A stretch of 59,473 bases of DNA, counting the filler, from Sphacelaria rigidula (lineage: Eukaryota), in the NCBI GenBank assembly GCA_964200075.2. It is 7 parts of 7 records of this genome, joined end to end, with 100 filler letters (N's around TTAATTAATTAA, not from the genome) between each part and the next. Parts side by side here need not be neighbours in the genome. Positions count along the whole stretch, not along the records: positions 8,512 to 16,922 come from CAXNAA020011233.1; 6 more parts are not named here. One strand, given 5' to 3'. The translations under genes were made by a program, and so were the position numbers. This document shows positions 5,874 through 50,553 of the stretch, in pieces. The notes under the pieces are model-generated. The model was not told the origin of the DNA and searched no databases. It worked only from the letters and a program-made list of their open reading frames with translations. Position 1 is the first letter of the stretch, and every line of letters begins with the position of its first letter.

Positions 5874-6349
5874 TCAAGCCTTTTGTGAGTTATTGAAGTT
5901 CTTGATGAGATTCATAAGGTAACGGAACCTCTGAGTTGCAAGGAACTTTGTTCCAATGTTAGCTATTTGATTCTTTGTTTCAATGTAATGAACTGTGATC
6001 TTCCCAGATTCCACCAATTCCCTCATGAAGAAAAAACGCAGAGCGACGTGTTCCGTCCTTCCGCTGAAAATACGGTTGGCAATCACTTGAAGAGTTGCTA
6101 TGTTGTCCAGGTAGATAGGTACAGTGTTGAGCGATGATCCACATCCCATCTCAATAATCATATTCGAGCAATAGACCGCCTCCTTGATGGCAATAGCTCC
6201 GGCAACCAGTTCCGCTTCCATCGTTGATTGTGCAGTAAGTCCCTGTAGCCTGACTTTAAAGGTGACCGGGGTTTCGCCGGCATGATGATGTTTGATGACG
6301 TGGATTTGGAGTTGGCGGGATTGTTCCCCCAGATTGCGTCAGAAAGCCC
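5874..6349 (-). pseudogene. Copia RNase H domain (frameshifted)
   Basis: SDAIWGNNPANSKSTS, TAQSTMEAELVA, IYLDNIAT, RTEHVALRFFFMRELV, NQIANIGTK. Confidence 0.92.
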
Positions 6350-7311
6350 GTCGACTTGCTGATGTACTTAAAACCCCCAATTGTTTCTGGGGTAATCGGT
6401 CCCATCATATCACCAATTATTAGTTCGTATGGACGAGATACTTCGCAGACGATGGTCTTGGGGTGAGCCTGTTGTTCACTTTTGCCCAACGCACACGTGT
6501 CGCACGGAGAAAGATTCCCCGTGAAAAACACCCCATTCCCGTCGATGCCTCGTATCGTATGAAGTGTCTGGCTAGACACGTGTCCGAGGCGCCGGTGCCA
6601 CAATTCTGCGTCCGCCGTTGTTAACATCGCCACTGTATTTGTTGTTTCCCCTTCGGCTGAAGCCACCTGCCTCCCTGTACCCGCGCCGGCCGAACGATCC
6701 ACGCGTATGATGAATGTGTATAGACCGTGGTCATGGAGCGACTGTTTCAGGGATAGTTGGAAAGATGCGACTTCCAAGCGTGGATCCGCCGGGTCGAACA
6801 CGACGTTGATTCCTCTTGTAACAGCGTTCTTGACGGAGAACAAATGGTGCCCCAGACCTTGTACTTCAAAAGATGGGAGAGATACTTCGTAAGAGACTCC
6901 CTGTTGGTCTGTTACCGTTCCTAGGACAGTAACTGAAGCTGTAGCATTTAACACATGATCTCCGGCCGCAGTTATTTGAAAGAGATTGGGAAAAATGGTG
7001 TAGTCGGGAACGGTCTCCAGTAAGCCAGGATTCAAAAAGTTGTCAAGAAAATTCTCGGTTGTCCCGCTGTTGACCAGTAGGGAGAGTAGAGTATCAGAAG
7101 CCAGCAAAGCTACACCCATGGTGGGATGTCCCGTTCTACTTTCCGTGAATTCCCCGATCGCTACATATGTCCGACCGTCCCCGGCGGGTGGCACTCCAGG
7201 CTGAATCGGTCTCCCGAGGGAGAGAGTTGAAGCTGGTTGATTGACAAAAGACATCGTAGCCGGGGGCCATAGCAGAACATGATAAGCCTTCATTCTGAGC
7301 TGTGGGGCCAC
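6350..7311 (-). pseudogene. Copia protease, GAG-pre-integrase and start of integrase
   Basis: LLVNSGTTENF (DSG changed to NSG), LGHHLFSV, LWHRRLGH...CDTCALGK, GDMMGPITPETIGGFKY. Confidence 0.9.
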
Positions 7312-7323
7312 TGACCGCTGTAC

Positions 7324-7700
7324 CTACAGCTTCTGAACTACCACAGCTGGGTATCTTGTTGCTGTAGCACCAGCCGTTGGTTGCGACTGGTGTGCGGGTG
7401 CACCGATGACTGCGTTAGAAGGGTACGCTGCCATATGCGCGTAGTGCGCCACACAAGCAGCGGCACTCTCTTTTTGAATGCGGCAGTCAGCATCGTCATG
7501 TGTTTTGGAACGATGATGAGAGCACCACTTCGCCGTTTTCTCTTTACCGTTCATAGTATTGCTCCCTTTTGCCCTTCCCCCTCCGCGTTGTGACGAACTC
7601 TCCTTTTTGGTTGCTTGAGAATTGGTGGGGCAATCCCGCCGGTAGTGTCCGAGTCTGTTGCAAGCGAAACACTTGATGCCTGCTGCCTCAGCAGACAGTG
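7324..7700 (-). pseudogene. Copia gag C-terminus with CCHC zinc knuckle
   Basis: IKCFACNRLGHYRRDCP (7621-7680) and WCSHHRSKTHDDADC. Confidence 0.85.
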
Positions 7701-7811
7701 CAGTGCCGGGTCCAGCATATTTCGTGGCCCGTGGCGAAGGATAAATAGTTTTATCTTTTGTATTATTGGAGAATGCCTAGACTGAGTTGACCCTATGACT
7801 GAGGGATCAGA

Positions 7812-8411: not shown

Positions 8412-8511
8412 NNNNNNNNNNNNNNNNNNNNNNNNNNNNNNNNNNNNNNNNNNNNTTAATTAATTAANNNNNNNNNNNNNNNNNNNNNNNNNNNNNNNNN
8501 NNNNNNNNNNN
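8412..8511. other. Artificial contig linker
   Basis: N44-TTAATTAATTAA-N44, with stops in all six frames; identical at six positions. Confidence 0.99.
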
Positions 8512-9781: not shown

Positions 9782-9992
9782 TGTGATGCGTGAGAGGACC
9801 GCGTGCTTCGAGGACCGCGCCGTAGTTCAAAGCACCCCAGGATGAACGTTTTTCAAAACCAATCGGGCCAGTCCCTGCAGGTACGACGCCCCTGACTGAA
9901 ACCCCGACCCTAACCCCGACCCCAATCATAACCATCGGGATGTTCAAATCCCGGTGCGATCCTCCAAGCCCGCGGTCCTCTCACGCATTACA
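9782..9992 (+). mobile_element. TGT...ACA MITE family, copy 1
   Basis: ~37-bp TIR TGTAATGCGTGAGAGGACCGCGTGCTT...; internal CCCTAA-like repeats. Confidence 0.85.
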
Positions 9993-10151
9993 AACACGGG
10001 GTGAGTGGAACGGCATTCTAGCCTTGGTCCCCAACCCCGTCAGGCTTACTTCATTGTTGATCGTCGAACTGGAGACGTGAGGATCTTTCTCGCCTCGACC
10101 CGTTTTGCCTGAGTGCACATCATGGACCATCTATTACGCCATCTATTACGT

Positions 10152-10362
10152 TGTAATGCGTGAGAGCACCGCGTGCTTCGAGGACCGCGCTGTAGTTCAA
10201 AACACCTCAGGATTGATGTTTTTCGAAACCAATTGGGTCAGTCTCTGCAGGTACCACGCCCCTGACCATGAACCCAACACTAACCCCAACCCTAACCCCA
10301 ACCATGGGAATGTTCAAATTCCGATGCGGTCCTCTAAGCACGCGGTCCTCTCACGGATTACA
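10152..10362 (+). mobile_element. TGT...ACA MITE family, copy 2
   Basis: Full TIRs; flanks ACGT/ACTT fit a 4-bp TSD with one mismatch. Confidence 0.85.
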
Positions 10363-10750
10363 ACTTCGTCGACATACGTACTGGATTCTTTGTCTCCCGC
10401 AATACATCTGCAGTCGACACTGTACGTAGGACACGTTTCGACAAGCTGATATTTTGTCCAGGGTGTGCTGTAGTGTTGCTTCCGTAGCGGGGAAGTGGCG
10501 TTTTTCTCTATTCTAGGTGCGCTTGTTCATTTCCTGCCTTTTCCGTGGTCGATGTGTCTGACCTGGGGGCAAAGGATGCGCACAGTGTGCAGGTATGGCT
10601 CGAGCTCCGCCATTTCGATGAGGTGATGACTGGCACTCCCTGCCATATGTAGTACAGTAGTCAATCCGGAAGCGAAGAAGCCAGTGGTGGCCGTGACGTC
10701 CTGCCATGGCTGTCGATCTGTCTCACTCCGTCAAAAGTCACATCAGTGGA

Positions 10751-10973
10751 TGTAACGCGTGAGAGCACCGCGTGATCGGGGGACCGCATCGGATCTTGAT
10801 CATCCCTACGGTCAGGGTCAGTGTCGGGGTTGAGGTTGGTGCTCGTGCTGGGGTTGGGGTCAGGGGCGCGGTTCCTGCAGGGATTGGCCCGATTGGTACA
10901 GAGAAGGGTCAATCCGGAGGTATTTTGTGCTACCATGCGATTCTTCAAGCACGCTGTGCTCTCAGGCATTGCA
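10751..10973 (-). mobile_element. TGT...ACA MITE family, copy 3
   Basis: Reverse-oriented diverged copy with both TIRs. Confidence 0.8.
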
Positions 10974-11455
10974 GCAATCATGATAACGTACTTCACGGTG
11001 AAGCGCTGACTTGACATATCATTGCTTGGGGCGGGTTGCCGACACATGCGTGTCCATTGCACAACTGGCGCTCGCCGACCGCGGTGCAGACGTTCGAGGG
11101 CGATCCAGATGTGATGAGAAGTTTCGAGACATGATGTGCCGGACACCGCGTTGGGCTCCGAAACACCACCCGTTTTTCTCGACGTGGATGACTAATGTAA
11201 CATACATCACTCACTCACTCTGCTGCTCCAACGTGATGCTTCGTCCTTCCTCACAGTCGCTGACCGTCTGGTTTTGAGGGGCTAGGGAAGGCAACAGTAG
11301 GGTTTGTACCGACAGCTGTCATGCATTGTTCAGAGTGCAACGATGCTCACCTCCCACGTCTAGTCGAGTGGAGTACGCGTGACTTCGTGCAGGAACCGAG
11401 CGGTGGATGTCACACGACTGAACTATGTCCGCCACAAACTCTGTGGAGTCCACCC

Positions 11456-11629
11456 CGTCATGCGTGGGAGTTCTCATGTGTGGAGTTGGGGTCAGGGTTG
11501 TTGTTGGTGCCATGGTCAGAGGCGTGGTACTTGCAGGTACTGCCCGATAGGTTTTGGGAAACGTCGATCCTGATGTGCTTTGAATTACGGTGCGGACCTC
11601 CGAGCACGCGGTCCTCCCACACGAGAACA
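11456..11629 (-). mobile_element. TGT...ACA MITE family, copy 4 (partly deleted)
   Basis: Shared core CAGAGGCGTGGTACTTGCAGG and TIR remnant. Confidence 0.7.
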
Positions 11630-11782
11630 CAGATCCCCCCCCCCCTCCCTGATGAGCGAACAGTTGTAATAAAACGTGTCCCCATGCCCCGCGTTCCAAG
11701 AGGAAACGCCCGAATGCAAATAACTCCAACCCACTGAACTTTTGAATTTACATCGTTATGGTCTGACAGGATCACCAGCGAC

Positions 11783-11864
11783 ATGTGGTCAGCCAGGCAG
11801 CTGTATGTTTGCGTGGTGGGCATCATCTTCTGCTTGTCGCTGTCATGCAGCCCCGCGGTGGGAG
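11783..11864 (+). CDS. Exon 1 of secreted Lys/Gly-Asp/His/Tyr diblock protein: signal peptide
   Basis: gacATG start; MWSARQLYVCVVGIIFCLSLSCSPAVG has n/h/c regions and an A-x-G cleavage site; donor G|GTACGT, phase 1. Confidence 0.75.
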
Positions 11865-11927
11865 GTACGTACTCCATGGGTAGTTCGCAATCGTGGTAGA
11901 TCTCTGCGGTAGACCTTGTCGGAGACC

Positions 11928-12107
11928 TATAATGCGGAAGGTGACCGCGTGCACCTGAACACCTTGGGTGTCGATTGTCGGGTGTCGGGGTTGGGGGTGG
12001 CGGTGGCGTTGGCGTTGGGTTCACAGCTGGGGCCAGGGGCGAGGTCCCTGCAGGAAGCGACCCGGTTGATGATGAAGGACGTCGATCCTGGGGTGTTTTC
12101 AGCTATG
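11928..12107 (-). mobile_element. TGT...ACA MITE family, copy 5 (truncated, inside intron 1)
   Basis: Diverged core and GGGTTG-type hexamers. Confidence 0.65.
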
Positions 12108-12428
12108 AAACTGGCCACGGGCATCAAGTCTTCTCAAACATCCTGAAGGAATCCCGAACCGTCGTCGGCACCACTGAGCGCAAGTTTCATGGTGGAAGAC
12201 GAGCGTCTGGCTGTTGCTCCGAGATCTTTGACGCGGTGCAGTGGTTGGTTGGAATTGACTTCAAGGGGGTGGACATTCAAACCACAACGCACTATGTAAA
12301 TGAGAAATTCGGGAGGATTTGTTCAGGGACAATTCCCGATGTGCCTTGCACCGTCACTGTGTGATACAACGAATCGATGCCGAACACCCGCCGCTCTCCC
12401 GTTTGTGTTGCTCGGTTCCGTACCACAG

Positions 12429-12536
12429 AGTCAACGACACCGCTTCAACGTACCCCCGATGCCGTCACTCCGGGCGCGGAGGATCATGCCTGGGCGATGC
12501 AAGCTGGCTTGCTGACCCACGCATCAGCTACTGAGG
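12429..12536 (+). CDS. Exon 2 of the diblock protein: propeptide-like spacer
   Basis: ~100-nt AG-free stretch, then CCACAG acceptor; 108 bp, phase 1-1; STTPLQRTPDAVTPGAEDHAWAMQAGLLTHASATE; donor G|GTGAGA. Confidence 0.7.
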
Positions 12537-12855
12537 GTGAGACGGAGAAGCGTGTAGGGGGGATGATGCACCGCCATGACTAAGTTCGAGTCGTACTACG
12601 ACGCAGTCGACCATTTGCGGTGTGATGATCTGAATGGAGGGGACAATTTCAGCGACATTCGTCCCTCCTTCCGTAGTGGGGACGGACGTTTATCCATCTC
12701 ACCCGTCTACCGGCATGAACCTTGACTTGACGTACAAGACTTGATGGAGGTGGGGCACTCCTTTTTTCTCGTGTACTGTTCCGTTGGCAACCGATATCAA
12801 CATTGTCGTGTCCGATGCGTCGATCCCGACGATTCCTTCTGCGACGTCAATACAG

Positions 12856-13232
12856 GTGACTCTGAACGGGCCCTCTCGAAGGGCAAGAAGAAGAGGGGCA
12901 AGAAGGGCAAGGGGAAGAAGGGCAAGAAGGGCAAGAAGGGCAAGGGGAAGAAGGGCAAGAAGGGCAAGGGGAAGAAGAAGGGCGGAAAGGGCAGGGGGAA
13001 GAAGGGTAAGAAGGGCAAGGGCAAGAAGAGCGACGACTACGACGACGACCACTACGACGACGACCACTACGATGACGACGACCACTATGACGACGACCAC
13101 TACGATGACGATGACCACTACGACGATGACCACGATGATGATGACTACAGTGACGGCTACGACTACGGCATGTACCCAAAATACGACTACGACACGTACA
13201 CCGCAGACGTCTACGACGACATGTACTATTGA
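12856..13232 (+). CDS. Exon 3 (terminal) of the diblock protein: RAL site, K/G block, D/H/Y block, stop
   Basis: ~100-nt AG-free stretch, then TACAG acceptor, phase 1; G/C-ending codons (AAG, GGC, GAC, TAC, CAC); non-repetitive Tyr-rich tail ending YY-TGA. Confidence 0.85.
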
Positions 13233-14336
13233 CTAGAGTGGCAGTCGTAACCGAGCTCACGTCTTGGGGTTGGCTGATGAGATCGTATTCATCCTCCTCT
13301 CACTGTAGTCGAACGTCGACTAGTTGTATCAAGACATACCATGGTTCCGATTGGTGTGGGTTTGATATCGAGTGTCCGTAAGCACTTGAAAACCTGTACA
13401 TAATGTTTGAAGTTGGGACGTCGTGAGGATGTTTGCCCGTAATTTCACTGGCTGGCGCCGGAAGCCGCTGGATTCACTCGCTTGGTGTTGTACTGTGTGT
13501 ACCCCGTAGTTTGTCTCATGTATCACGTTTTTGTACTGTATTCCGCTGTGCCGTAGTATCGCCCTGTGCGCTTGCCTCGACGATTTTGTCCACGTCCTGT
13601 AGCTCGACTGGTCAAGCAGTTGTCGTTTGACGTGTGAAGTACTTCGCGCTGGTGTGGTGTGGAACCGCGAGGGACGGATCAGGAATTGTCTACAGCATGT
13701 TGAGGCGCTGTGTGGAGGAGTATGTACACCTTACACTTGACACGAGGGATTCGAGGTCATTTTAATGTGGAATTGTCGCCTGACGTCTCGACTACTGGGA
13801 AGCAGCATTGGTTCAGTCAATACCATGAAATACCGACTCGGAGCTTGGTCTATCGAACGGGATGGCGATATGTGAAGGGTGCTCGTGGCACCTCCTGCCA
13901 CTGTCCCACACCTCGCCTCAACGGCGGAGAGGGCGACACTCTCGCGTCCCCGAAGATTCCCAAAATTTTGGTACCTCCGCCGCAGGCGGCTAGACGAGAA
14001 ACGCAACGTCGACCTTCTGCATGGCGTAGTCTCGCCCGCGACGTCCGTGTACCCTAATCACATCTGAGTGCATCCGGAGTCACCGTTCAGTTGAACGATA
14101 ACCGGAGGCCGGGAGGCCGACATGACCCAGGAATAATTGCGCGTGTCCATATGTTGGGATGAGGTAATGAAATAACCGGAAGATTCTCTGTAGTGCATCC
14201 GCAGGTTCGTGTACGAGTGTGTGGTGCGCTGTCTTATCAGCTTCCCCACCATGTGGTCGTCAACCCGATTTCACGCCGGGTAGCGTTCCCCGAGGGAAAT
14301 GGCACGATACGTATGTGGCACATGTCTGCTTCCTGT

Positions 14337-14525
14337 CGTGATGGGTAAGAGGACGGTGTGCGTGGAGGTCCGCATCGGAAGTTGGATATTCTCATGGTAA
14401 GGGTTGGGGTTGGTGCCGGCGTTGTGGTCAGGGGCGTGGTACTTCCAGGGACTGACCTGATTGGTTTTGAAAAACCTCGGTCGTGTGGTGTCTTGGTCTA
14501 CGGCGCGGTCTCCTCACGCACTATG
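14337..14525 (-). mobile_element. TGT...ACA MITE family, copy 6
   Basis: Diverged reverse copy. Confidence 0.7.
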
Positions 14526-15539: not shown

Positions 15540-16210
15540 GTTGGACTGGTCTCCGGAACGTTGTAACGGTTCAGCACCTCCGCCATGAACCGGATTTGTG
15601 CAATATCCCGAATACACCCATCCCGGCCCCTTCTGTTCTAGAGTTTCCTCAACTCTTCATGATATCGTCCACCCCGAAGACCATCATCGCCACGGTGTAA
15701 TGCGTGAGAGGATCGCGTGCTTAGGGGACCGCGGTGTAGTCCACAACACCCGAGGATCGACATCTTTTTACACCTATCGGGCCAGTCCCTGCAAGTACCA
15801 CGCCCCTGACCCTAACCCTAACCCTAACCCTAACCCTAACCCTGACCCTAACCATACGGATATTCAAATTCAGATGCGATCCTCTAAGCACGCGGTCCTC
15901 TCACGCATTACAACGACGTCACCAGGGCCCCTCAGTCGAGAACCCCGGGGCCTACCGAGCATTGCCCGAAACCACACTCCACCAGTTGGGCTGGTCTCCG
16001 AAACGTTGTAACGGTTCAGCACCCCCGCCATGAATTGGGTTTGTGCAGTATCCCGGGTACATCCATCCCAGCCTCTTCTCTACTCGAATTCCCCCAGCTC
16101 TTCATGATACCGTCCACGCGAAAGACCATCATCGCCACGGCGTCACCAGGGCCCTTCAGTCGAGGAACGCAGGGATCTACCGAGCATTGCCCGAAACCAC
16201 ACTTCACCAA
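15540..16210. repeat. Tandem duplication (~225 bp) within the RT; the first copy carries a MITE
   Basis: GTTGG(A/G)CTGGTCTCCG...CCGAAACCACACT present twice (starting ~15540 and ~15985). Confidence 0.9.
15696..15912 (+). mobile_element. TGT...ACA MITE family, copy 7 (best preserved), 4-bp TSD; Ginger-like
   Basis: 37-bp TIRs with 3 mismatches; the empty site in the duplicate (CGCCACGG^CGTCACC) gives TSD ACGG/ACGA; internal (CCCTAA)n. Confidence 0.9.
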
Positions 16211-16922: not shown

Positions 16923-17022
16923 NNNNNNNNNNNNNNNNNNNNNNNNNNNNNNNNNNNNNNNNNNNNTTAATTAATTAANNNNNNNNNNNNNNNNNNNNNN
17001 NNNNNNNNNNNNNNNNNNNNNN
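16923..17022. other. Artificial contig linker
   Basis: Same 100-bp linker. Confidence 0.99.
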
Positions 17023-19775: not shown

Positions 19776-20321
19776 TTGCGATTTCTCTCTCTTGTTCTAT
19801 TTTTGGAGAGCAAAGGAAAAAGTGGGTACATCACCACCTCTTTCAACTCAAACGTAGATAGGGGTAACTGCGCAAGTTCTACCTCCTGTACTAAGATACA
19901 CGCATATTTAACAAACATACGCGCGCCCTTGTGTGTATCTTGTGCGTGAGGAGCCCTTCGGTTGAGCAACAGCGTTGCATGCACTGCGTGCGCCCCATCT
20001 CGCCATCGTCACATCATTCGCAAAAAAAGTACTTCCTGCCCGGTACATCTTCCCCGCCCTACATGCATGCATCGTTTTCCCGTCATACGTTTGTTCACTT
20101 CAACTCCTCCACTCCCTCGGGGGGAGTCCGAAACGATCATAGTAGCCTTTCCCTCAACATATACCCAACCCTTTTGGTCTCACATATTCGATTCGGCCAG
20201 CATTCCCGCACCGTGACGACTTCGTCGATTTTTTCTTACTATCATTACTCGCGTTTCAATAATTCCGACGGCGGAGATCAGATCCTACTCTTCCGACAAG
20301 ACAGAAAATACAAAATAAACT

Positions 20322-20390
20322 CTTGTGACTCGATCTCTCCACCTCCCGACCTAACCGATCCAAGTTATACCACCTAGGCCACCAGGGCGC
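20322..20390 (-). mobile_element. Degenerate tRNA-derived SINE head
   Basis: A box TGGCCTAGGTGG and B-box-like GATCGAGTC about 35 nt apart. Confidence 0.4.
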
Positions 20391-21144
20391 CGCAACCTAC
20401 AGTCTACCCCTAGCATACATCCACACGCGTACCTTCTCCGTTGGTCCAGTAACGATGCTCTTGTCAAGTGGGGGCGGCGGGCCAGGGTCCCCGTCCTCTC
20501 CGCCTTCCCCCCCACCCCTGATGAAATATCCTGGAGACTCTTCCCAGCCCTTATCGGTCACCTCGGCAGAAAATTGTCTGCTGCTGCACCCCTGACCGTC
20601 GGACACCAAACAAGCTGATCGCCGTCCCTCCAACCGCCGTTGGTGTGGTAGACGTTGGTGGCTTCGTAGCGTTGCTTCTCCAGAGGCGGCTCTTGTCGTA
20701 ACACCCCGCCTCGTTTCCTCTCCTCGCGCTAGCGTCGCTCTGCAGTGGTTGTCGTATGATGTGCGGTTGTTGTTTTATTCCGGGTAGATTGAGAGACAGC
20801 GGTAAAGGGGGTTTAGGGACAAGGGGAGCCACTGACATCGGGTACGCACAAAGGTCGCCATTTCTCTCTCTTCCTTCGGGGGAAATGGGGAGGGGGGGGG
20901 GGGAAAGGGGAAGCATCTTCGAGGGCAGTGAAACAATGACGTTAGAAAAAAGGGGGTGGAATTTGACTTGACCCGAGTCCTGTTTCGAAACCCACCCCAT
21001 GCTTGTGGCTTCGCCTGTATTTGCACGAGAGGCTGCTAACCCAGCGTCATTTTCGGCTGGTTCTTGTTTTCGTCGCTCATCCACGCGGAAGGGTATACTG
21101 TGGATCCCTTAACGGCTCGGTAGAAGTAGGAACCCTATAAGTTC

Positions 21145-22878
21145 CACAGGCACCGTAGGTAAGGTAGGTACGCGGTACCGGTATTTGGGACATTTCATAC
21201 CCTGCCGATACCGGTCCGATCGGGTATTTTCGAATGTCATACCCACGATACCCACAATATCACGGTATTTCGAGATGTCAATACCTACCGTACGCGCTCG
21301 ATGAGGTATTTTCAAATTTCATACCTACGTTACCTACGATACCACGGTATTTCGATATTTCAACACCTTCCGTACCCGCCCAATCGGATATTTTCATATG
21401 TCATACCTACGATACCTACGATACCACGGTATTTCGAGATTTCAATACCTACCGTACCCGCTCAATGGGGGTATTTTCAGTTCTCAAACCTACGATACCA
21501 ACGCATACCACGGTACGGGATACCCCGGCGAATACCGGACGCGATGCACTTCCCACGGTGCAGCAGCTGGTCCCAACTTACGCAGAGGCCAGAAGTTGTC
21601 GAAGCAGGTACATCTCTTTCTTCACGAGTAATATATACCCAGCTTCCCCCTGATTTTCGTGCTTGGATCAATTCGAATGAACTTATTACCACGTATTTTG
21701 TCTGAAGTGCGGTTGATATTTTTCTCTTGATCTGATAGGTCCAGCACATACCTGTTCGTAGAAGGCTTTAACTCAAACTTGTGATCAGTGGCTTGCGGAG
21801 AAAAACTACAAAACAGTCACAATAAGCTTTTTCGATCGAAAACATACGGTCGAAGGGCACGAAGCGACACTTGACTTTTATCTTATAGACCGCCACGCCA
21901 GATAACACCCGTTCACAGAATCATGCCAACTCGATCCAACTCATTCTCAGCTACCACCGCAACCCTACAGCATCGAGTACGAGTTGAGCACAGGGATAGG
22001 TACCCTGCAGTAATTGGGCATGCTTTCTTTATTTTTTGTCGGCGAAAACTTGTGCACCTTATTTCATAGTAGGATCAGCGACGAAACTGCGGGGTACGGT
22101 GGGCAACCGAGTTGCGTACACGCTTATGGACAGTGCAGGCAGTACAAAGCTGCACGTTGTTGAAGTCCCTTTCACGTCGCGTTGTAAGCAGAGAGAACTG
22201 ATAGTCCTGGGCCGTCTGCACTGAACGTTGCCCGCTTCTCTTCAGAATCCTACAGTACAAAACACGCACACACACACGCAAGATACTGCTTGCAAGCAAT
22301 GCAGTCAGTACAGACTGTCTACACTGTACACGAGTGATCATGTACCGTTTCACTAATTTCACTGTCTTTTTTCGATCGAAAGTTTGAAATTCACTTGTAC
22401 CCAACCAGACAAGAATGAGCGATTTTCGCTCAAATCTATTCCACCGCCCAATTTTTTCGATCAAAGAAAAGTGCTGATATACACCCTGAAGCGCTTCTCC
22501 GCATTGCCGGATGACAATTTTGAAACGGGTAAAGAGGGTAAGGCAAGTACCCGGTACTGGTATTTGCGACATTTGATATCCTCCCGATACCGACCAGATC
22601 GGGTGTTTTCAAATGTCATACCTACGATACCCACAATACCACGGTATTTCGAGATAAAAGTACCTACCGTACCCGCCAACTCCGGTATTTTGAACTATCA
22701 TAGCTACGATACCTATAATACGATACCAGGGTATTTCGAGATTTCAATACCTACCGTACCCGCCCAATCCGTAGTTTGAAATGTCATACCTACGATACCT
22801 ACGCATACCACGGTATGAGATACCCCGGTAAAATACCGGGGATACGCTTGGTACGGTACCTTACCTACGGTTCCTGTG
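21145..22878 (+). mobile_element. Non-autonomous hAT-like element (1734 bp), 8-bp TSD ATAAGTTC
   Basis: TIR CACAGG(C/A)ACCGTAGGTAAGGTA; TSD at 21137-21144 and 22879-22886; subterminal tandem repeats; no transposase ORF. Confidence 0.92.
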
Positions 22879-23399
22879 ATAAGTTCACATCTAATACGTA
22901 CAAGGAAAATAAAAATGCGGTTGCCTTCATGAGGCGATCATCGATGTTATTGGGCCAACGTTGAGGGGGCTGAATTGTGGCGTTTCATCTCCTTGACATT
23001 TGCCAGATTCAGTTACAATTTCCGCCAGATTCAGGTATTCGTCGAGATTCGGGTATAGATTTAGGAGAAAACACGAAAACATCCACGTGTACTGTATCTT
23101 GTCGCACTTTGCGAAGGCTCCCGCCAATCACGTGACTGGGAATCTGGTCGGCTTGTGCTGCCAGTACACCCTGTACCTGAATATGGCGGATATACGTCGA
23201 GGTGTATCTGGATGTGCCGTTCGCTCGAAGGTGAATAATCTGGATGATTTATTTATGTTCTTGTATTACCAAAACACTTCCGCACCGTTCACCAGACGTC
23301 CACGTAACTGTATGCAGTAACATGCAGTCATTTGACGATAACATTTGAGGTGTACTGGGCGGCGATGAATGTTGTGGTGTACAAGCGATGTTGTTTGGA

Positions 23400-24060
23400 T
23401 TCCTCAAAAAGTAGGTGGGTACTACACGGTACACCAGCGAAACGCGTTTGGGTGGGCATTGCCACTGTCAAAGACATGTTGCCGTAACACAGGCCGCCGT
23501 ATTACATAACAGTAGCGTTGTTCAAATTGATCGAGGGAGGATCGTGGAGAACGCGACCGCACATCATATGGAGACCCTGGTCGTGTGTTCTTGCATAGAA
23601 CCTTGGTGTATCCACCCCTACTTGTGCTTACAAGCATCGAGCACCGCACGCGCGATACAGTCTGACGGCAGTGAGACAGTAGAAACTGCTATGTAAGTCT
23701 GTGCTGACTGTACAGTAGTCGGAAAGCAGGGGTCCTCACCGAAACGCCAGTCTTCGTTCAACAGCCTTCGGTCGACTCAGCGAGGTAGCATTAGCACTGC
23801 TGCTGTTATTGCTTCTACTGGCGCTATTGAACCTACATCTCCGCATAGACTGCGCAGCACCGTCACGACGCCCAAGGCTCTTTGTAGTCGCCGCCACCGC
23901 CTGGATGGGCAGTCGGAAAGCCATTGATCAAACCTACCAACAACCTTGTAGGAAAGGTCGCCTGCTGCTCGCTTCACTTTGTTTCTCTGCGCACAACAAA
24001 GCTTCAACAAAGCTCTCAATGTGAAATACTTGATTTCCCAGTAGGCGATGCTGCTGCTTC
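23400..24060 (-). pseudogene. Possible highly decayed hAT-like transposase
   Basis: Motif-like fragments in the expected order across frames: YWEIKYF..KLC..WLSDCP (BED-like), FGEDPCF, CRQTVSRAVLD, MPTQTRFAG. Confidence 0.35.
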
Positions 24061-25254
24061 AGATCGTGGCAATGTCGACGACGCTGCAGACTGCACGAGC
24101 AGCGCCTCAACCAGAGCTGGCGCATTGAGCTCGAGCGCACTACGCACAATCTTCCAGTCATATTCCATCCAAATCCAGGGTATGATCGTGTCAAGATATT
24201 TGTGGTTCTTCGACGCCGGGCCCGTGTAAGCAGTAATTTCGAGCAGATCGTATCGTCTCCATGTGTGTCGCCCACCATTAAAATATTGGATATTATTCGA
24301 ACAAGTCTGAATACCTACTCAAAGCCTCGAACACACAGCACACACGTCTTGTTTTTCCCGTTTAGTTGGTGCTATCGAACGGGTTTTGGGTCTGACCAGG
24401 AACGAATGGGCAAATATTGTTATCCTGGGGCTGGATGGATTGAGGGACAGTGTATAGTATCGGTCGAAGGACAAAATGGCAGCGGCACAGCAACACGGTG
24501 GCGTAGAAGTGGTGACTAGGCAGTTCAAAAGCGACAATAACGACATCGTGCTTTGCAACGAAAACATCAAAATCAAGGTAAATGCCATAGATGCCTCCCC
24601 GCGCCCCCCTGCTGCGTGCTACATCCGGCCTCTCTGCCGTGCGCTGTATCTTACTCTTTTGCGGTGCTGATTGCTCCGGTACGACAAGATATTTCTCGTG
24701 CCTGGACATTAAACCACTTGACGTGGAGAGTAACTGCATTTTTTGTACACCCAGCATCATTCTCTCGACACGTTGACTATTCCCTCGGAGGTATATATGC
24801 GTCAATAACTGCGGAAGATACGTTTGGCCAACGCGGGGTTGGGTGGCATTTTCTTCTTCACAGGACTAAACTTGTGCTCTGGGCTAGGTCGCATTTCGGA
24901 ACACTTTTATAGTCAGCGCGTTACTTACACGTAGATTAGAGAAAAATCTGTATCTCCGGCGGCGACAACAACTCCAAGCCCGATTTTTCTTGTGAACACG
25001 GGATCGCAATACTGTAAGTTCGTGAAAAATCGTCTACCGAACGGTGTCGACAACGTTTCCCCGGTTCAACCCCATCTTCCCTTTGACGCCAGACGCACAG
25101 ACCGTCCTCAGATCGACCACTAGAATGTGTGCCGAACAACTGCTTTGTTCGAGGAACATGCGTGAGTCCAGTGTTGGAGTCCGCAGATTATACGGAATGC
25201 TGTCATTGTGGGTTGAGCTCCCAAGTAGAACGGAGGTGCTCGACCATCGCATGT

Positions 25255-25327
25255 CGGGGTTAACCCTTAGACCGCGAGGTTAGTCTTCTGTTGAATCGGC
25301 ATCAATTTCAAGTGGAAAAAAGTAGGG
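25255..25327 (-). repeat. Single inverted unit of the contig-7 palindromic repeat family
   Basis: GGTTAACCCTTAGACCGCGAGG...GAATCGGCATCAATTTCA is the reverse complement of units at 56690-56760. Confidence 0.75.
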
Positions 25328-25433
25328 CAATACACAAAAAAGGGTAGACCCTTATGCTTTTGGAGCAAAAAAGGGTGGCGCATTTTTCGCTTGGGGGCGC
25401 GGCGCTGCACGCTGGCCAAACACCTCGAAAACA

Positions 25434-25533
25434 NNNNNNNNNNNNNNNNNNNNNNNNNNNNNNNNNNNNNNNNNNNNTTAATTAATTAANNNNNNNNNNN
25501 NNNNNNNNNNNNNNNNNNNNNNNNNNNNNNNNN
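25434..25533. other. Artificial contig linker
   Basis: Same 100-bp linker. Confidence 0.99.
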
Positions 25534-25730
25534 CGTCACGCCGATTCGGAGTCAGACCACGACTGGAACGTACCGAGCCAGCTGATACGATACAAGACAC
25601 CGAGAAATTTCCATGACAACATGTCACGGCGATGGATCTCCTCCAGGTGCTCACGTGATAGACTGACTACCTCCCATACATCACAGAAAGTCGGGTAGGA
25701 GCACGACAGATGGACGGCCAGGAAGTCGGT

Positions 25731-25754
25731 CACACACACACACACACACACACA
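25731..25754. repeat. (CA)n microsatellite
   Basis: Direct reading. Confidence 0.95.
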
Positions 25755-26206
25755 TCTCAACCGACCACTCATGTATCGAACCCGGCCTCACACCAGCGCA
25801 GTCACCCGGCGTTACTCGTACCAACATTGCCTTCAGCGCAACCGTGCGCCATCCCGAGGTCGGGTTGAGGCGCTCCCGGTAGCAATACAGTACATGGCTG
25901 GATTTCGAGCGTCCAGTTCACGGACCCTGGGCGATTTTTTCGGCTCTCCTCGGCTAGAAACACGCACATATCCACCACTGCAGTAGATAGCATTCGGCAC
26001 CACCACCTTCCAGCAAGCCGTCCTGGATCGACCGCCACCACGAGGGCGACCTCCCCGACATCACCCCCCCTCCTGCAAGAGCTTCTTACAGCTCCATGCC
26101 AGTTCCTCACTCCGGTTGATGTACCATGCAAACAACAACCGTAGTTCACTCACCACACAAGATGACCGTGGGGATATCTCATCCTCAACACAAGAGTTGC
26201 GGAATT

Positions 26207-28960
26207 TCAAATCCGCCACATTGTTCCCACAGCTAGGGAACTTGTCACACATGAGGTTTGGCGGTGGCAACTATATGGCTTCTGTTCTCTATTGCTTCGC
26301 CACAAGGGGCGATTCTGTGCATCTACTTCCGTCCCCTCTCGACTACTGGTACGGGTATATCTCTTTCTTCTCTCTGGCAGGTCCGGGTCGCCCAGCCGAG
26401 ATCTCAGTTTCGGATATTTCGCCGCGTCCATCGGGCCACGCAGACACGCGTTCATCATCACTATCCCCTCTCTCAATCTCCCGTCTATCTTCAGGTGCTC
26501 TTCCTCGTCTACTTTGTGTCTGAGCGCTTTTTTTCTCCTTATTTCTACCATGTCTCTTACTGTTGTCTTTTACCCCGCATCTGCTTCACCTATGGACAGT
26601 ACCTCGTCTTGGTTTCCTCCGATTTTCGTCCATACGTTCTCGACTTCTCCATCCCACCCTATTCCAGCCTGCCCGTTCGTTACGTTCTTCCATACAGCTC
26701 CATCAACAATGGATGATACGCTGTTTCTCTGCATCATGTTTTTTACGCTGTATCACCACCCCAATTTCATCATGCCTCTGTTTGTTTGAGGTGGGTACAT
26801 TCACAACTCTGCTCTCAATGGTTTATTGTTACTCGTCGTTTTCGAGCATACGAGCAGGTTTTTAGCAGCCGCCATCTGTGATGTTTGCAACTTCTTCACC
26901 AACTCCACTATTCTAGCCTCGGTACATTGGTACGTTCATCAGGATACATCTCTTAATCCTAGTGTCTAGGTGCGAGTCTCTGAGGATCACGTCCATCCTG
27001 CCTATCTGCGCCTCACCGTCGTCATTAACTTTATTCATGCGTGAATCCCAACAACAGTGTTTTAGATCTCCACGCCAAGGTGTGTATACTGGTCCACGAT
27101 CGGCAGTTTCTCTTCTCCCCACTTCTATTTGGTCTCTACCGGATGTTTCTCATCTTCGTTACATACGAGTGCCCAGCATTTGTGAACGTTCGCTGTCGGT
27201 CCCCCTTTCCTAGTGTGTTCCACTTGATTGATTGATTGATTGATCGATCGATTGTCGCACTTTAACTGAGCCCCCAGGGATCCAGCCGCGGTCACATGAT
27301 AGTAGTACCCAAGACGAAACAATACTGAAACAAACACTCGCTGAAGAAAAAGAAGGAACAGAAAACGTCAAACAGAACTACACAGTAGACTAAGGCGTGG
27401 AAAAAATGAGGATCAAAAGTCAAGAAGAGCAAAGGGCAGAATGAAACGGTCGGTCTCAAACGAACATTGCCTTTGCCGTTTGTTCCTGTTATCCTTCTGG
27501 TGCTCCTGAGATCCCCACAAAATCATCCGTGAACATCAATCCTGATACCATATCTTCACCCACCTTGACTCCTTGCTTCGCTACTTCTATTGCTATTATC
27601 AGGCCGTTTGTAAACACCTCGAATATAGTGGGTGATAAAATCACTTCCTTGCGCAACTCCTTGTAAAATAACAAAATATTTGATGTCTCCTCGTCTAGCA
27701 TCCTGGCACTTTTGGCATATTCTATCATCTTCTTCCCCATTCTCCACATCTTTCTTTTTCTCACAACTTTTTCCACGGCCCATTTCTCCACCATACGGTG
27801 TCATGAGCCTTTTGCACGTCCAGAAAGAAACAGTACGTCGTTAGCCCGGTGTCTTTCCTACCCTGAATAATCTTGCCTAGTGTACACACACATGGTCGAC
27901 GCAACTACGGTTGGGTCCAACACCTGCTTGCCCCTGGCTGATTTTGCTTCTTTCTCTAGCATCGTTCCTGTTCTGTCGTTCAGAATCTTACAGAATGTTT
28001 TACCTACGGTGCTCAGCGGCGTTATCCCTCTGTAATTTCCTGGGTCAGCCTTGTCTCGTTTGCTGAAAAGGTTGACCACTACTCCTCTCCACCTCTTGGG
28101 TGTGTACTCGTTTCCCACATGCAGTTATACAGCACAACCATCGTGGTAATTATTTCCTCTCCCCCGTACTAAAGAAACTCATTCACCATGTCGGCTGCCC
28201 CTGCTGCCTTCCTCTTCTCAAGTTTAGCTACGCACCCCTTTACTTCATCTCTGGTGAACACTCATCTGCAATTCTTTCGAGTCATTATCCTCCCGTGTGG
28301 ATGCCTCTACATTTGCCTTCGCTCACGCGTTGACCTCTTTTTCGAATTTCGTGTCGGACTTCATGCTAGTTTTTCGTGTTCCTAGTTTGCGGCAGTGCTC
28401 TACTCGCCCTTCTCCCTTCCCCTTCGAACGACTGACCATTTTACCGCTATGTGCCCGTAGTGTGGCTACTCTGTTGTTCATCATTCTTGCCTAGCTTCCC
28501 ATGATCCCTTTTATCCCTACCCACATATGTTCTATCCCTCCATCGAAATCTTCCTTTGCTTTGTTCACTACATCCTTCTTCCCTACCATCTTCTTTACTT
28601 CGTTTTTATATACCTTCCATCCTACCGTAGTTTCACTCGATACGCATCTATCGTGGGCCTGTCTCCTTACCTTTACAGCCTCTACAAATTCCTCATCTCA
28701 CCATTTTACTGCTCTGTTGCATACGATCAGTTTCTTCCGTAATGACTTTCACTCGCTATGTTCTTGACCAACTGCTACCATCCTTCTATAATCTTCGCTC
28801 CTGCCCGATCCCTTTTCATGTCGGTATCAACTGTACCTACGCGTTTCAACAGGTCGGAGAATTTTACTGCATTTTTGGCCATATCTTCTCGGAAGTCTTG
28901 CTGTTTTTCGGCCATTTCTAGGTCATCGACTCTCCATTTGTACAACTTCCTACCCCGCAT
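26207..28960 (-). mobile_element. Decayed non-LTR retrotransposon (LINE) ORF2: RT and C-terminal region
   Basis: DPGNYRGITPLSTVGKTFCKIL, FFLDVQKAHD, GVAQG, LSPTIF, GLMFTDDFVG, YTHLGVEI; frameshifted. Confidence 0.92.
27224..27465 (-). mobile_element. Retroposon 3'-end insertion with (ATCA)n tail inside the LINE RT
   Basis: (GATT)n at ~27227-27244; interrupts the RT peptide QEQTAKA / VEHTRK. Confidence 0.65.
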
Positions 28961-30255
28961 ATTTATTTTAGCTCTCGTCTGCTGGTATATAGATGGTACC
29001 GGACGGGGGGTGACGCTTCTCGATTCCACTTCTGGCTCGGTAAGAAAGCCGAGGACATCCCTGAGATATGGTTTGCTCAGAATCCACAAGAAACATTGGT
29101 GTGAAGTAGGATTAGTGACCTTTAGTGACCTCTGCAAACAGCTAGTGGGCAGATTTCATCGTCGTCAACTCCAGCTTTGACACCCGCGCACGACGGAGTG
29201 CTATACCACGGAGTGACGATACAGGGAGAAGCACCTAGGCATCCACTACACGTCCCGCCCTCGGTACTCGGTGGGTTGTTCGCTGTGCGCTAAATGGAGC
29301 GTAACACGTGGGTATGCATACACATACATACACATCATCAAAAAGTGCTATCATGAGCAACCACGGGATTGACTCAGCATGGCTCGATTTGGGATATACG
29401 CCTAGTCTCTGCGCTCGTTCTACTAGGGTCGAGACCAATCACGGCTTGGGTGCGTTTTTCTTCTTCTGTTTTTTTAGCTACGCTAGGTTGAAAATATCCA
29501 CAAGCCGTTTGTTATCAGGAGGACAATCCGAAAATACCCGTCCATCCTTCACGACCGACAGCACAGGGTGTCGCCGTACCAAACTCATTTTCGCCTCCCC
29601 TCCCCAAGACAAAACATCCATTGCAACTTTGCCGATCAATTTCGCTCAACCTTGCCAAGCTGGGGGGTGGGATCTACAGTCTACGCCGTCATCAACTCAG
29701 GCATACCTTGGAGCATGTTCCCACGCTTTCCACCCGGGCCAGATCCTTCAGCATCTCCTCTACATTATCTGGGCCGATGACCGGCAACTGCGGTGGGCCC
29801 AACGAAACAGTTAACGGGTTGAACGGACAGTAGAGGAAGTAGGAACGGCGGAGTTGGGGGCATAAGACCGTGTATAGTGTCCACGGCGCGTTGGTCTGCA
29901 CCTATGCACGACACACGCATAGGGCGGCAATACTTCTCAGCATCGATGACATCATGTTCAACAGTCGCATCGAAGAAAAATGTCAGAAATTTCTCCATCG
30001 CCTCGACGCGATAGCTCGATTTCATCGACCAGACCTCGTCCGACTAGAGCGCAGGCGAGCGCCGAGATTATTTAGAGTTCATGTGTGCGATCATTCTCAC
30101 ATCCCAACATTGGTCTCGAGCCTGTCATGCAACCCCCCGGCTCAACCTAGTCCCTGCTCATGGCAACGTGCGTACAGAGGGGCACGCGTGTTGAAGATGC
30201 GTTCAATGCCGGAAGGGGGACCCGCGCGTGGGTGCGAATGCATCCCACCGCTCTC

Positions 30256-30296
30256 TGCAAGAATAATGCAAGAATAATGCAAGAATAATGCAAGAA
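30256..30296. repeat. 11-bp minisatellite (TGCAAGAATAA)x3.7
   Basis: Direct reading. Confidence 0.95.
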
Positions 30297-31920
30297 AAAA
30301 AAGCGAAGTCGCAATCCTCGGGCAAAAACAGACTGTAATACGTCATCGAAGCACAACAGAGCTTTGGGGGTGACACTACCGCCTGAAGGACGTGAGAATC
30401 GGGGGAAACACCTCTCCTCCCCGCGCTGTCGGAAAGCCGGAACAAGACGATGATGTCGGCACTCAGAGCTTCCCAGAGCGTTGCTTGGCCCCTCTGAGCT
30501 CTGGCTCTCACACGGTTCAGCGCAAACTACGAACCAAGGTGAAACACGCTGGGCGTACGAGCTGGTCGGCCATAAAGCAGGACAGACCGGGTAAACCCCT
30601 GGTCGTTGATCTTTCAGAACAGCATCCCACTGTCCAGCCTGCAGTGCCCTGACCATAATTTTACATGTGACTCATGCAAGTGGGGTCGGATTTGAAACAG
30701 CGTCATCTGATTCACGTACAGGCTGGTTCACGCTTATCGCCCAAAATTGTGTCATCAGCAAATGCCTTTCGCAATACATACCCAAGAGTCGCAAACATGA
30801 TATCATACTGACCGCCATGGACAGCTGAAGAGCGTGACATAGCCGAATTTGTGTGTAAGGCCATAGTGGTAGCGCCAAGGGCGAAAACGTATACCGACCG
30901 ATCAGCGCCCGTCAAATTGTTCCGAGATCGAAATTACGAACTCCGAGCCCAATTTTCACCCCATCTCCACCACGTGCTTCAAATCGTAATATCAGTCATC
31001 GGCTCCGCAATCTGACGAAAAACAACATATTTTGAAACGGCTACTACGCGGGTCGAATTATGACCGAAACCGGGATGTTTCGGCGATATGGGGTGTTGGC
31101 GTCGTCTAATTTCCACTAATGACGCGCACGAAAGATCCAGGGAGCCTTGTGACGGTGTCCCGTATGTCTGTTGTAGAAAAGCTCAGATCGCCCTCAAACT
31201 TGGCAGTTCCGTAGGTATTCCTGCTCAAAATGGGAAAAAAAAAAAATCTGAACAATATTTCATGGTTTCTCCGTTCTCTAACGACTCCCGCGGGTCCAAG
31301 TATGAAGACCCCCGAAAGGCGGTACAGAATGCCTCAAAATAAAAAGAATAAAATCATGCGTCCCGGAGGTAGTCCAAGGAACACATGTACAAAGTTTGGT
31401 GGATAACTAAAAAGACTCAAACATTTTTTTTCGCCTTGACGTGAAACTTACCCCAAAAGACGTTTCCATACTAAAATCAAGTAGTTGGGACTTGAACGTT
31501 TCAAGTCCACGTTCCCCACAAACGCGCAAACCTTCACGCCATTATTACGAGTTAGAATCTGAAACCTTGCACAAATATGGTATGTGTCATTACGCAACTT
31601 TCTATGGACAAGCTTCTTTACCACTTGAGGTTTTCACCGTTTTGGGGGGGGTTCCACGGGATCCAAGTCGTTTCTCGCAGCAGTCTCCATTATGGGACCC
31701 CGGAAAATCAGCACTACGACTTTTTCTCATTTTTTTCGCTCCGTGACGAGTCGTCTCCGCATAACCTCAAGAAAGGTTCCACACAATTTCGTCGCAAAAC
31801 TCAATCAATTGATACTTGAATTTGAATGTTCACGTCAAAGAAGGCCCAAAAACGCCGTTTCGGTACGAAAATCAATTGGCTTGCGGTTTCACCGCGGTAC
31901 GCCAAGGTTTACCGCACGAA

Positions 31921-32218
31921 AGCGAAAAACCTCACGCGTCTCGAGGAGACATTTAGACCCTGAAAGTTTGCACAGCTGTTCTATGCGTGATTACGCAACT
32001 TTGAAAGAACGAGTTTTTTTCGTCGATACCGTTTTACGGGGTCCGACTGGATCGATGTTTTCCCGAAAATTTGGGGACCCCCGAAAAGAGGTGAAAACAG
32101 TCGAAAAGTAGAAAAGTGAAGAAAAAGTCGTTCTTCGAAAGTTGCGAAGTGGCCCATAGAACAGCTGTGCAAAAATTCAGGGTCTAACTCCTTTCAACGG
32201 CGTGAGGTTTTGCCGATA
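31921..32218. repeat. Inverted repeat (~95-bp arms), probable TE subterminal structure
   Basis: TTAGACCCTGAA..TTTGCACAGCTGTTCTATG at 31953, inverse ending at 32187; related diverged direct unit at ~31552. Confidence 0.8.

Positions 32219-50505: not shown

Positions 50506-50553
<48 letters not shown>

Follow-up and report, generated by a model that had tools for sequence, protein, structure and literature searches.

The question raised by this locus is whether a low-complexity open reading frame (ORF) conceals a complete spliced gene, and if so what the product of that gene might do. It lies at positions 11783 to 13232 of a 59,473-nucleotide (nt) stretch of DNA from Sphacelaria rigidula (assembly GCA_964200075.2), which we refer to as the window. 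A preliminary description, made by inspection of the sequence, had proposed that three exons hidden here are joined through two phase-1 GT-AG introns into a frame of 188 amino acids (aa), encoding a secreted protein with a Lys/Gly block followed by an Asp/His/Tyr block. We find that this is a genuine three-exon protein-coding gene in a brown alga. Its transcripts are spliced precisely at the two GT-AG introns that had been proposed, and are apparently abundant.

Gene structure and splicing

Inspection of the sequence places the start codon ATG at 11783 and the stop codon TGA at 13230-13232. The donor sites are G/GTACGT at 11864/11865 and G/GTGAGA at 12536/12537 (the slash marks the cut), and the acceptor sites are CACAG/ at 12428/12429 and TACAG/ at 12855/12856. 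The joined exons come to 567 nt, i.e. 188 codons plus the stop, and both introns are in phase 1. The nearest upstream in-frame stop lies 15 codons before 11783, with no in-frame ATG between the two.

Transcription was assessed using 15 public runs from six studies. None of these is recorded as RNA; 11 (X1-X11) are guessed to be RNA, and X12-X15 are unlabelled as to kind. Contigs of four of the 15 runs were aligned to positions 11400-13800 at a likeness of at least 90%, namely X1 and X2 (study P1), X5 (P2) and X12 (P6). The RNA nature of X1, X2 and X5 is a guess made by the run-search tool. The contigs give neither strand nor transcript ends, and their summed depth is an unreliable guide to expression. 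Bins without cover (the introns and upstream region in X5, and intron 2 in X2) were not counted as evidence. The parts of the gene are as follows.

11724..11782, plus strand: 5′ untranslated region (UTR), placed by the rise in depth in X1 and X2; the real start is at or upstream of ~11724-11782
11783..11864, plus strand: exon 1 coding sequence, with the start codon and the entire 27-residue signal-peptide-like segment; ends in phase 1
11865..12428, plus strand: intron 1, 564 nt, GT..AG; holds a partial copy (~11982-12106) of an element resembling a miniature inverted-repeat transposable element (MITE)
12429..12536, plus strand: exon 2, aa 28-63, the bulk of the acidic Thr/Pro/Ala-rich putative propeptide; non-repetitive, with a phase-1 intron on each side
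12537..12855, plus strand: intron 2, 319 nt, GT..AG; spanned by contig joints
12856..13232, plus strand: exon 3 coding sequence including the TGA; end of the propeptide, K/G block and acid/Tyr block
12867..12875, plus strand: R-A-L tripeptide, aa 68-70; candidate RXL-type propeptide cleavage site
12879..13028, plus strand: K/G/R block, aa 72-121
13029..13229, plus strand: acidic His/Tyr block and Tyr-rich tail, aa 122-188
13233..13800, plus strand: 3′ UTR, at least 568 nt; depth 3,350 (X1) and 2,605 (X2) in the last bin (13749-13800)

At the 5′ end the depth in X1 and X2 rises from ~4-8 in the bin 11643-11723 to 46,509 and 33,734 respectively in the bin 11724-11804. At the other end the transcript runs past 13800, so that the 3′ UTR must be at least 568 nt long. 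If the 5′ UTR extends that far, it would include a very small upstream ORF of two codons (ATG GTC TGA) at 11758-11766, 17 nt upstream of the ATG.

Contigs spanning the proposed junctions 11864/12429 and 12536/12856 are present in X1, X2 and X5, and absent from X12. Intron 1 is crossed by a joint from 11862 to 12427 (equivalent to the 11864/12429 cut) with GT..AG borders, in two contigs of X1 and one each of X2 and X5; the shorter flanks are 28, 28 and 47 letters, and those of 28 letters are short. The joint across intron 2 runs from 12535 to 12855 (equivalent to the 12536/12856 cut), again with GT..AG borders. It occurs in three contigs of X1 (flank 44 letters, summed depth 22,933), one of X2 (flank 23) and one of X5 (flank 39). 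X2 has a further intron 2 contig joined from 12536 to 12856 (flank 30), and a loose end ahead of 12855 that, small differences aside, resembles the last part of exon 2.

The depth follows the exons. Where exon 2 is unique (bin 12453-12533), summed contig depth comes to 91,687 in X1 and 118,829 in X2. The bins of unique 3′ UTR sequence (13263-13505) have 23,846-93,359 and 45,850-85,710 respectively, compared with ~9-73 (X1) and 0-50 (X2) in bins lying wholly within introns. Contigs without any difference from the window cover parts of the 3′ UTR at 13236-13329 (X1, depth 2,149) and 13351-13444 (X2, depth 8,422), and a contig of X5 matches exon 2 at 12444-12536 with zero differences. Spliced joints in three RNA-like runs from two studies, together with the contrast in depth between exons and introns, make the pattern that of a spliced, abundant mRNA. 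In X12, where the longest record runs to 207,836 letters, splice joints are absent and the depth is roughly even at ~50-560 over most of 11400-13800; this run behaves like genomic DNA of the same organism label.

The ORF list contains just the stop-to-stop frame 12726-13232 (168 codons), the first 43 codons of which are intron. The N-terminus of this last-exon ORF is therefore false, as had been suspected, and exon borders, phase-1 GT-AG introns and spliced contigs all agree on the hidden 188-aa frame.

We note that the runs contain the gene in two versions. At 11835-12456, 13236-13329 and 13513-13786 one version has 0-1 differences from the window, and the other differs by ~4-9% together with small gaps. 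Both occur in X1, X2, X5 and X12; at 11882, for example, 103.9 of a depth of 150.2 carries the alternative letter. The cover of intron 1 in X1 and X2 derives solely from the diverged version. With two versions in the runs and one copy in the window, the second points to a paralogue or a very divergent haplotype lying outside the window.

The coding frame and its repeats

Exon 3 consists largely of two tandem arrays. The periods detected by Tandem Repeats Finder are all multiples of three: 9, 24 and 33 nt in the K/G array, and 15, 18 and 33 nt in the acid/Tyr array. Differences between one repeat unit and the next fall at third codon positions. In the K/G block all 30 Lys codons are AAG, and Gly is encoded by GGC (12), GGG (4), GGA (1) and GGT (1). 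In the acid block Asp is encoded by GAC (26) and GAT (7), and Tyr by TAC (14) and TAT (2). Length variants in the runs insert a whole GAA codon behind 12946 (all four runs) and behind 12997 (two of the four). The loss of 1 nt at 13231, seen in three of the four runs, adds one Tyr that is immediately followed by TAG.

The higher-order period of 33 nt, i.e. 11 codons, is common to both arrays, at 12891-12968 (97% matches) and 13041-13145 (88%). This suggests recent duplication of units in both blocks, which could be a possible means of keeping their charges in balance.

Repeats of this kind might also belong to a non-coding satellite or a transposon fragment that merely mimics an ORF, and the preliminary description had asked whether the repeat block occurs genome-wide in such a form. 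Some features of the locus point in that direction. A MITE-like element of ~210 nt with ~40-nt terminal inverted repeats is found around the gene and in intron 1, outside the coding sequence, and its copies are:

9782-9993, 10152-10363, 10816-10973, 11485-11620 (5′ flank), 11982-12106 (intron 1), 14383-14514 and 15696-15907: MITE-like copies, whole or partial

In addition a second open frame spans exon 3, encoding Arg/Ala and then poly-Thr. X12 served as a stand-in for genome-wide repeat counts. There the MITE-like element at 11481-11642 has a depth of 20,104-39,184, and a depth of 20,000-39,000 marks it as a very high-copy family. By contrast the coding arrays have a depth of 440-1,223 in X12, against a local baseline of roughly 70-350. 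They are therefore a few-fold to about tenfold above the baseline, compared with 100-300-fold for the MITE, and this fits the existence of a few other loci with such simple words. The block has a single copy in the window, and the spliced GT..AG contigs occur in three runs. Furthermore the confirmed splice phases lead from the ATG into the K/G-D/H/Y frame, so the Arg/Thr frame is excluded and was dropped. With this modest depth and a single copy in the window, the block does not have the distribution of a genome-wide satellite or transposable element, and a non-coding origin for the frame is exceedingly improbable.

Architecture of the encoded protein

The protein was analyzed in four segments. 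The first, aa 1-27, has a positively charged n-region (MWSAR), a hydrophobic core of ~15 residues and a polar c-region ending in A-V-G, with Ala at -3 and Gly at -1. The 9-residue Kyte-Doolittle maximum in this core is 3.2. The layout was judged by inspection and a hydropathy scan. Exon 1, with its phase-1 end, corresponds to this signal-peptide-like segment, and all three Cys residues of the protein lie within it. The second segment, aa 28-70, is an acidic stretch of 43 residues rich in Thr, Pro and Ala that ends in R-A-L (isoelectric point 4.4 for aa 28-69). Ser 71 is the sole residue between the RAL and the K/G block.

The third segment, aa 72-121, comprises 30 K, 18 G and 2 R among its 50 residues and nothing else, with a charge of about +31 at pH 8. 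The fourth, aa 122-188, contains 33 D, 16 Y and 6 H among 67 residues, with a charge of about -33 at pH 8. Within it, five D3-4HY units and a single DDDH-DDDDY unit are joined by a tail that carries four DY dipeptides and finishes in YY. Thus the anatomy that had been put forward, i.e. an N-terminal signal peptide, a spacer of ~43 aa ending in RAL (aa 68-70), a 50-residue K/G/R block and a D/H/Y block ending in YY (here of 67 residues), is borne out in its spacer and blocks, and the N-terminus is signal-peptide-like in its n/h/c layout and its small residues at -3 and -1.

From the signal-peptide-like N-terminus we infer that the product is secreted. Several other fates were considered. In the plastid presequence of heterokonts an ASAFAP-type motif puts an aromatic residue, as a rule Phe, directly after the signal-peptide cleavage site (+1); here A-V-G is followed by Glu, with no Phe, Trp, Tyr or Leu in the next four residues, and plastid targeting was rejected. 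Glycosylphosphatidylinositol (GPI) anchoring was set aside since the C-terminus has no hydrophobic stretch, retention in the endoplasmic reticulum (ER) since there is no K/HDEL, and N-glycosylation since the whole protein contains no Asn.

The chain that follows the RAL has 33 positive and 33 negative residues, so that its net charge per residue is 0.0, with a charged fraction of 0.56. The charges are strongly segregated. Kappa is 0.62, whereas the values for 300 shuffles averaged 0.13 and never went above 0.275, and the sequence charge decoration is -27.3, compared with a minimum of -6.2 in 300 shuffles. A single-sequence AlphaFold2 model of the exon-3 product has a mean predicted local distance difference test score (pLDDT) of 59.8, a predicted template modelling score (pTM) of 0.13 and one helix of seven residues. 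This is consistent with a disordered diblock, single-sequence models being weak in this respect.

Precursors of the defensin or cathelicidin type combine a cationic peptide with an anionic propiece. The product might similarly be the precursor of one or more polycationic defence peptides, antimicrobial or antifouling, in which the K/G block would be the active part and the Asp-rich block a neutralizing pro-domain that renders the polycation harmless up to the point at which proteases part the two at, for example, the KKKR/G or KK/S boundaries. The exact +33/-33 balance and the strict two-block polarity would be expected of such a precursor, as would a signal-peptide-like N-terminus with a propeptide. 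The very deep transcript contigs are also like those of many defence peptides, although depth is a weak measure. However, the K/G block lacks hydrophobic residues and is consequently not amphipathic, while the D3-4HY units and the Tyr tail are more elaborate than a mere neutralizer would need. Nor was a relative found among known peptide families in the Pfam and HMMER searches described below. We regard a defence peptide precursor as unlikely.

Searches for related proteins

The translation of exon 3 matched no Pfam-A family at E <= 0.01. A word-indexed search of 5.8 billion protein clusters scored 8000 candidates for exon 3, of lengths 68-217 only, and none reached E <= 0.001; this search is weak because it also missed the protein P0033 described next. 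HMMER applied to 1.84 billion representative proteins gave two matches at E ~1e-5, P0033 and P0034, both of them compositional. In P0033 an Ala/Gly/Lys block and a Ser/Glu/Tyr/Asp block are accompanied by a DNA-binding end of the Rho_N (SAP-like) type; it lacks a signal peptide and was rejected.

P0034, an uncharacterized fragment of 338 aa, is the best match among the 1.84 billion representatives (phmmer E 1.7e-5, 41 bits). Its parts follow the order of those in the gene product, and do so twice: a K/G block, an E/D/Y block and a Gly/Tyr-rich tail. Unlike the gene product it contains Cys-Gly-Cys-Gly motifs and uses Glu rather than Asp; it belongs to no Pfam family. Its best E value in composition-adjusted BLASTP is 0.35, and we consider it a look-alike and not a relative.

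Other searches were also negative. The propeptide (41 aa) as a query drew seven candidates, none at E <= 10, and exon 3 had no usable match in a protein atlas. Metagenome contigs gave 596 pattern matches and no confirmed relative. Within the window a search for paralogues picked up nothing beyond the gene and one simple repeat (47281-47394). In the open-access literature no secreted Lys/Gly-Asp/His/Tyr protein of brown algae was found, although the Phaeoexplorer supplementary tables could list the gene. As had been supposed, the protein thus belongs to no named family, with no Pfam match and no true homologue in the protein or metagenome searches. Since neither the protein nor a true relative is in the collections searched, the gene is unannotated, lineage-restricted, or both.

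The absence of an orthologue or family from these collections would suit a young orphan gene that is transcribed and unimportant, in which two trinucleotide-type arrays expanded behind a signal-peptide exon to give a product that is unstable or irrelevant. Both blocks are indeed simple tandem arrays, and the repeat length differs between copies. Against this, the frame is open over 188 codons across two introns, and the variation between repeat units falls at third codon positions. The coding length variants in the RNA-like runs stay in frame (+GAA twice), and the loss at 13231 keeps an immediate stop. Moreover the charges are exactly balanced, and the RNA-like runs contain both of the diverged versions. 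A gene of no consequence is on these grounds highly improbable.

Other features of the window

Elsewhere in the window, at 48245-49066 on the minus strand, is a large exon of a Kelch-repeat protein. It is 87% identical to a protein of Ectocarpus and 80% identical to one of Discosporangium, with lower identity to Phaeothamnion, Chrysoparadoxa and Tribonema; the window thus matches none of the genomes represented in that protein collection exactly. A query of the protein atlas with the Kelch sequence yielded no usable taxon. The identity with Ectocarpus indicates that the window comes from a brown alga, and the stramenopile setting that had been assumed for the gene is upheld by these brown-algal best relatives.

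A copia-type LTR retroelement has left a remnant at 5874-7776 (minus strand), in which the zinc-knuckle gag domain and the GAG-pre-integrase domain lie in different frames. A long simple-sequence tract at 49663-50834 is open in several frames, and two dispersed repeat families appear as pairs of similar stop-to-stop ORFs (21163-22779 with 38770-39330, and 26166-26789 with 37652-38235). Rfam gave no matches in the window. A scan for bacterial promoters and terminators found nothing, which is irrelevant to a eukaryote. Paired 44-nt runs of N recur with a spacing of ~8.5 kb (528 N in total), and look like masks and not assembly gaps:

8412-8511, 16923-17022, 25434-25533, 33944-34043, 42454-42553 and 50964-51063: pairs of N runs

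Possible function of the protein

The extracellular matrix of brown algae is described as consisting mainly of alginate gelled by Ca2+ and of sulfated fucans, alongside phlorotannins and iodine, and their wall structural proteins as mostly uncharacterized (PMC8307928). Vanadium haloperoxidases of the apoplast are reported to cross-link phenolics, and Laminaria to contain mono- and di-iodotyrosine (PMC2866472). The adhesive of kelp holdfasts is reported to stain strongly for protein, the identity of which is unknown (PMC13485184).

Set against this background, the reading to which we give most weight, at a little short of an even chance, is that the product is a secreted self-neutralizing polyampholyte that acts as an ionic, and later covalent, cross-linker of a wall or adhesive secretion. 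The protein would enter the ER and the secretory pathway, and the propeptide would be cut off at the RAL, as happens at RXL sites in the diatoms, also ochrophytes. During its passage in the vesicle each block would neutralize the other, giving a compact or self-coacervated cargo that is not sticky beside the polyanionic alginate and sulfated fucans. Mutual neutralization during transport would in this way keep the polycation from gelling its polyanionic cargo early. On release, the saline apoplast, rich in Ca2+ and Mg2+, would loosen the pairing of the blocks. The freed Lys block could then bind the carboxylate and sulfate groups of the wall polysaccharides, while the Asp/His block could bind Ca2+ or other metals, with Ca2+ forming a bridge to alginate. 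Finally, vanadium haloperoxidase of the apoplast might use H2O2 to fix the 16 Tyr residues by oxidation, the products being di-Tyr, halo-Tyr or Tyr-phlorotannin links.

Calsequestrin and the histidine-rich Ca-binding protein (HRC) are luminal stores of Ca2+. The composition of the acid block (49% Asp, with regularly spaced His) invites comparison with these proteins, with an anion arm added. The product would then buffer or carry ions with high capacity, either in the secretory lumen or in the apoplast; Asp/His would hold Ca2+, so controlling the gelation of alginate, or transition metals, and Lys would hold iodide, vanadate or sulfate esters. The iodide of kelp is reported to be mainly chelated by apoplastic macromolecules (PMC2866472), which would accord with such a role, and the manner in which it associates with the matrix is described as unresolved (PMC8307928). 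But in this chain the blocks would mostly neutralize each other instead of binding small ions, there is no ER-retention signal, and the enrichment in Tyr would be unexplained. Homology to a Ca-binding family was found neither with Pfam nor with HMMER. We think an ion buffer quite unlikely.

The same charge architecture might serve a packaging scaffold in secretory vesicles or physodes, which would condense fucans, alginate or phlorotannins and then be degraded or released, playing no permanent structural part. Physodes and Golgi vesicles are reported to bring phlorotannins and anionic polysaccharides to the wall (PMC2866472; 10.1101/2024.02.19.579948). The proposal overlaps the first steps of the cross-linker mechanism set out above; as a separate explanation it is very unlikely.

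A number of points weigh against the cross-linker reading itself. The wall or adhesive role is inferred from the sequence, and the runs do not tie the gene to walls, rhizoids or spores. No orthologue was found in the collections searched, so conservation cannot back the function, and a young orphan expanded by repeats may have little function. The frame has one exception in the runs, a contig of X12 with a loss of 3 nt at 12984 and of 1 nt at 12994; these losses may reflect misalignment in the repeats or a frameshifted second copy. The RAL is just three residues and could be there by chance, and RXL processing, as presented in PMC5525289 and PMC9650480, is documented in diatoms only. The ionic strength of seawater weakens binding that is purely electrostatic. 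Lastly, composition can mislead as a guide to role: the diatom (Amphora) protein AC3362 was chosen by composition as an adhesive and is reported to have proved a cell-wall protein and not an adhesive (PMC4220933).

A more far-reaching version of the cross-linker proposal would make this the first structural or adhesive protein to be identified in the brown-algal matrix: a one-component, self-neutralizing coacervate glue, a substrate of haloperoxidases and a protein processed at RAL. Taken as a whole that is rather unlikely. Brown-algal walls and glues have been described nearly all in terms of alginate, fucans and phlorotannins, and the gene is a concrete candidate to fill the protein gap. It also shows how such genes escape annotation, the sole long ORF having a false N-terminus. 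The two-block design is short, clean and exactly charge-balanced with a Tyr-rich end, and the predicted behaviour is therefore directly testable in vitro.

Were the glue reading true, the Lys arm would grip sulfated fucans and alginate, and the Asp/His arm Ca2+ or other metals. The tyrosines of the HY and DY motifs would be a natural protein substrate of the apoplastic vanadium haloperoxidases, and the iodo- and bromotyrosines that kelps contain in protein-bound form would be carried by this product, which would link halogen chemistry to the curing of the wall. Use of the RAL would extend the diatom rule to another class of ochrophytes, making RXL processing an ochrophyte-wide secretory step that predates diatom silica. 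A natural self-coacervating diblock would also be of interest for the design of wet adhesives.

Comparison with known systems

Diatom wall proteins are described as having a standard layout in which the signal peptide is followed first by a short RXL-terminated domain and then by Lys-rich sequence, the RXL domain being cut off by an unknown protease (PMC5525289; PMC9650480). As far as these descriptions go, proteins of the silaffin, cingulin and silacidin types resemble the gene product in their ochrophyte host, their ER signal peptide (here a signal-peptide-like N-terminus), their propeptide ending in RXL (here RAL) and their Lys-rich low complexity. Cingulins add Tyr-rich domains and silacidins polyacidic ones, and all of these, like the gene product, are without a fold or Pfam family. 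The RAL closes the 43-residue stretch after the predicted signal peptide, one residue ahead of the K/G block, and is therefore placed as an RXL domain end would be.

The Lys clusters differ. The lysine-enriched regions of cingulins are described as having K-x-x-K spacing with S or G, of the K-S-G-K type (PMC9650480), and the Lys block of this gene has no such spacing. It contains no Ser and is built from the motifs GKK, GK and KKK, and does not show the Lys clustering of silaffins and cingulins, which is marked by Ser/Gly spacers, pentalysine clusters and Ser-rich lysine-enriched regions. Brown algae make no silica frustule, and so the host is not a silicifying one of the silaffin kind. The gene product also differs from the silaffin and cingulin types in having basic and acidic blocks in one chain with zero net charge, and there is no sequence similarity.

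Silacidins are small peptides rich in Asp, Glu and phospho-Ser that are freed from a precursor at flanking RXL sites. The acid block of the gene product has two Ser in 67 residues and no RXL within or after it, and is rich in His and Tyr instead.

AC3362 and AC714 of Amphora are described as secreted diatom proteins rich in Tyr and Lys with KG-dipeptide repeats, found by their composition, and AC3362 as built into the insoluble wall matrix (PMC4220933). Their ochrophyte origin, their KG repeats and Tyr-rich regions, and their secretion, which is predicted for the gene product, are points of likeness. By their description they are unlike it in being Pro/Thr-rich and much longer, with no poly-Asp/His and no charge-balanced diblock.

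The glues of the sandcastle worm and of mussels employ disordered secreted proteins rich in Gly, Lys and Tyr, in which opposite charges are paired into a dense fluid that is cured through aromatic residues. In sandcastle-worm cement the polycation and the phosphoserine-rich polyanion are on separate proteins. Here both charges are in one chain, Asp takes the place of phosphoserine, and the HMMER search showed no homology to these animal proteins. The idea of a Dopa-independent coacervate has been raised for the sandcastle worm (PMC4220933).

Block polyampholytes with runs of more than ~8-12 like charges are reported to self-coacervate (PMC12721214). As there described, synthetic Lys/Glu block polyampholytes resemble the gene product in that long opposite blocks are present in a single chain, here with ~32-33 charges each. 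They differ from it in being artificial, and in lacking Gly spacers, His, Tyr, a signal peptide and a propeptide. Extensins and other hydroxyproline-rich glycoproteins (HRGPs) have Ser-Pro(3-5) repeats and Y-x-Y cross-link motifs. The protein contains five Pro, none of them in Ser-Pro(n), and a Y-x-Y motif is present in its tail (Y-D-Y).

Judged from its sequence, then, the product would resemble the silaffin-, cingulin- and silacidin-type proteins of diatoms, the Amphora wall protein AC3362 and the glue proteins of worms and mussels in design only, and be a member of none of these groups. A broad class of secreted low-complexity, charged, Tyr-rich matrix proteins is a plausible home for it. 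What would set it apart is the fusion of a long polycation with an equally charged polyanionic, Tyr-bearing block in one small secreted chain.

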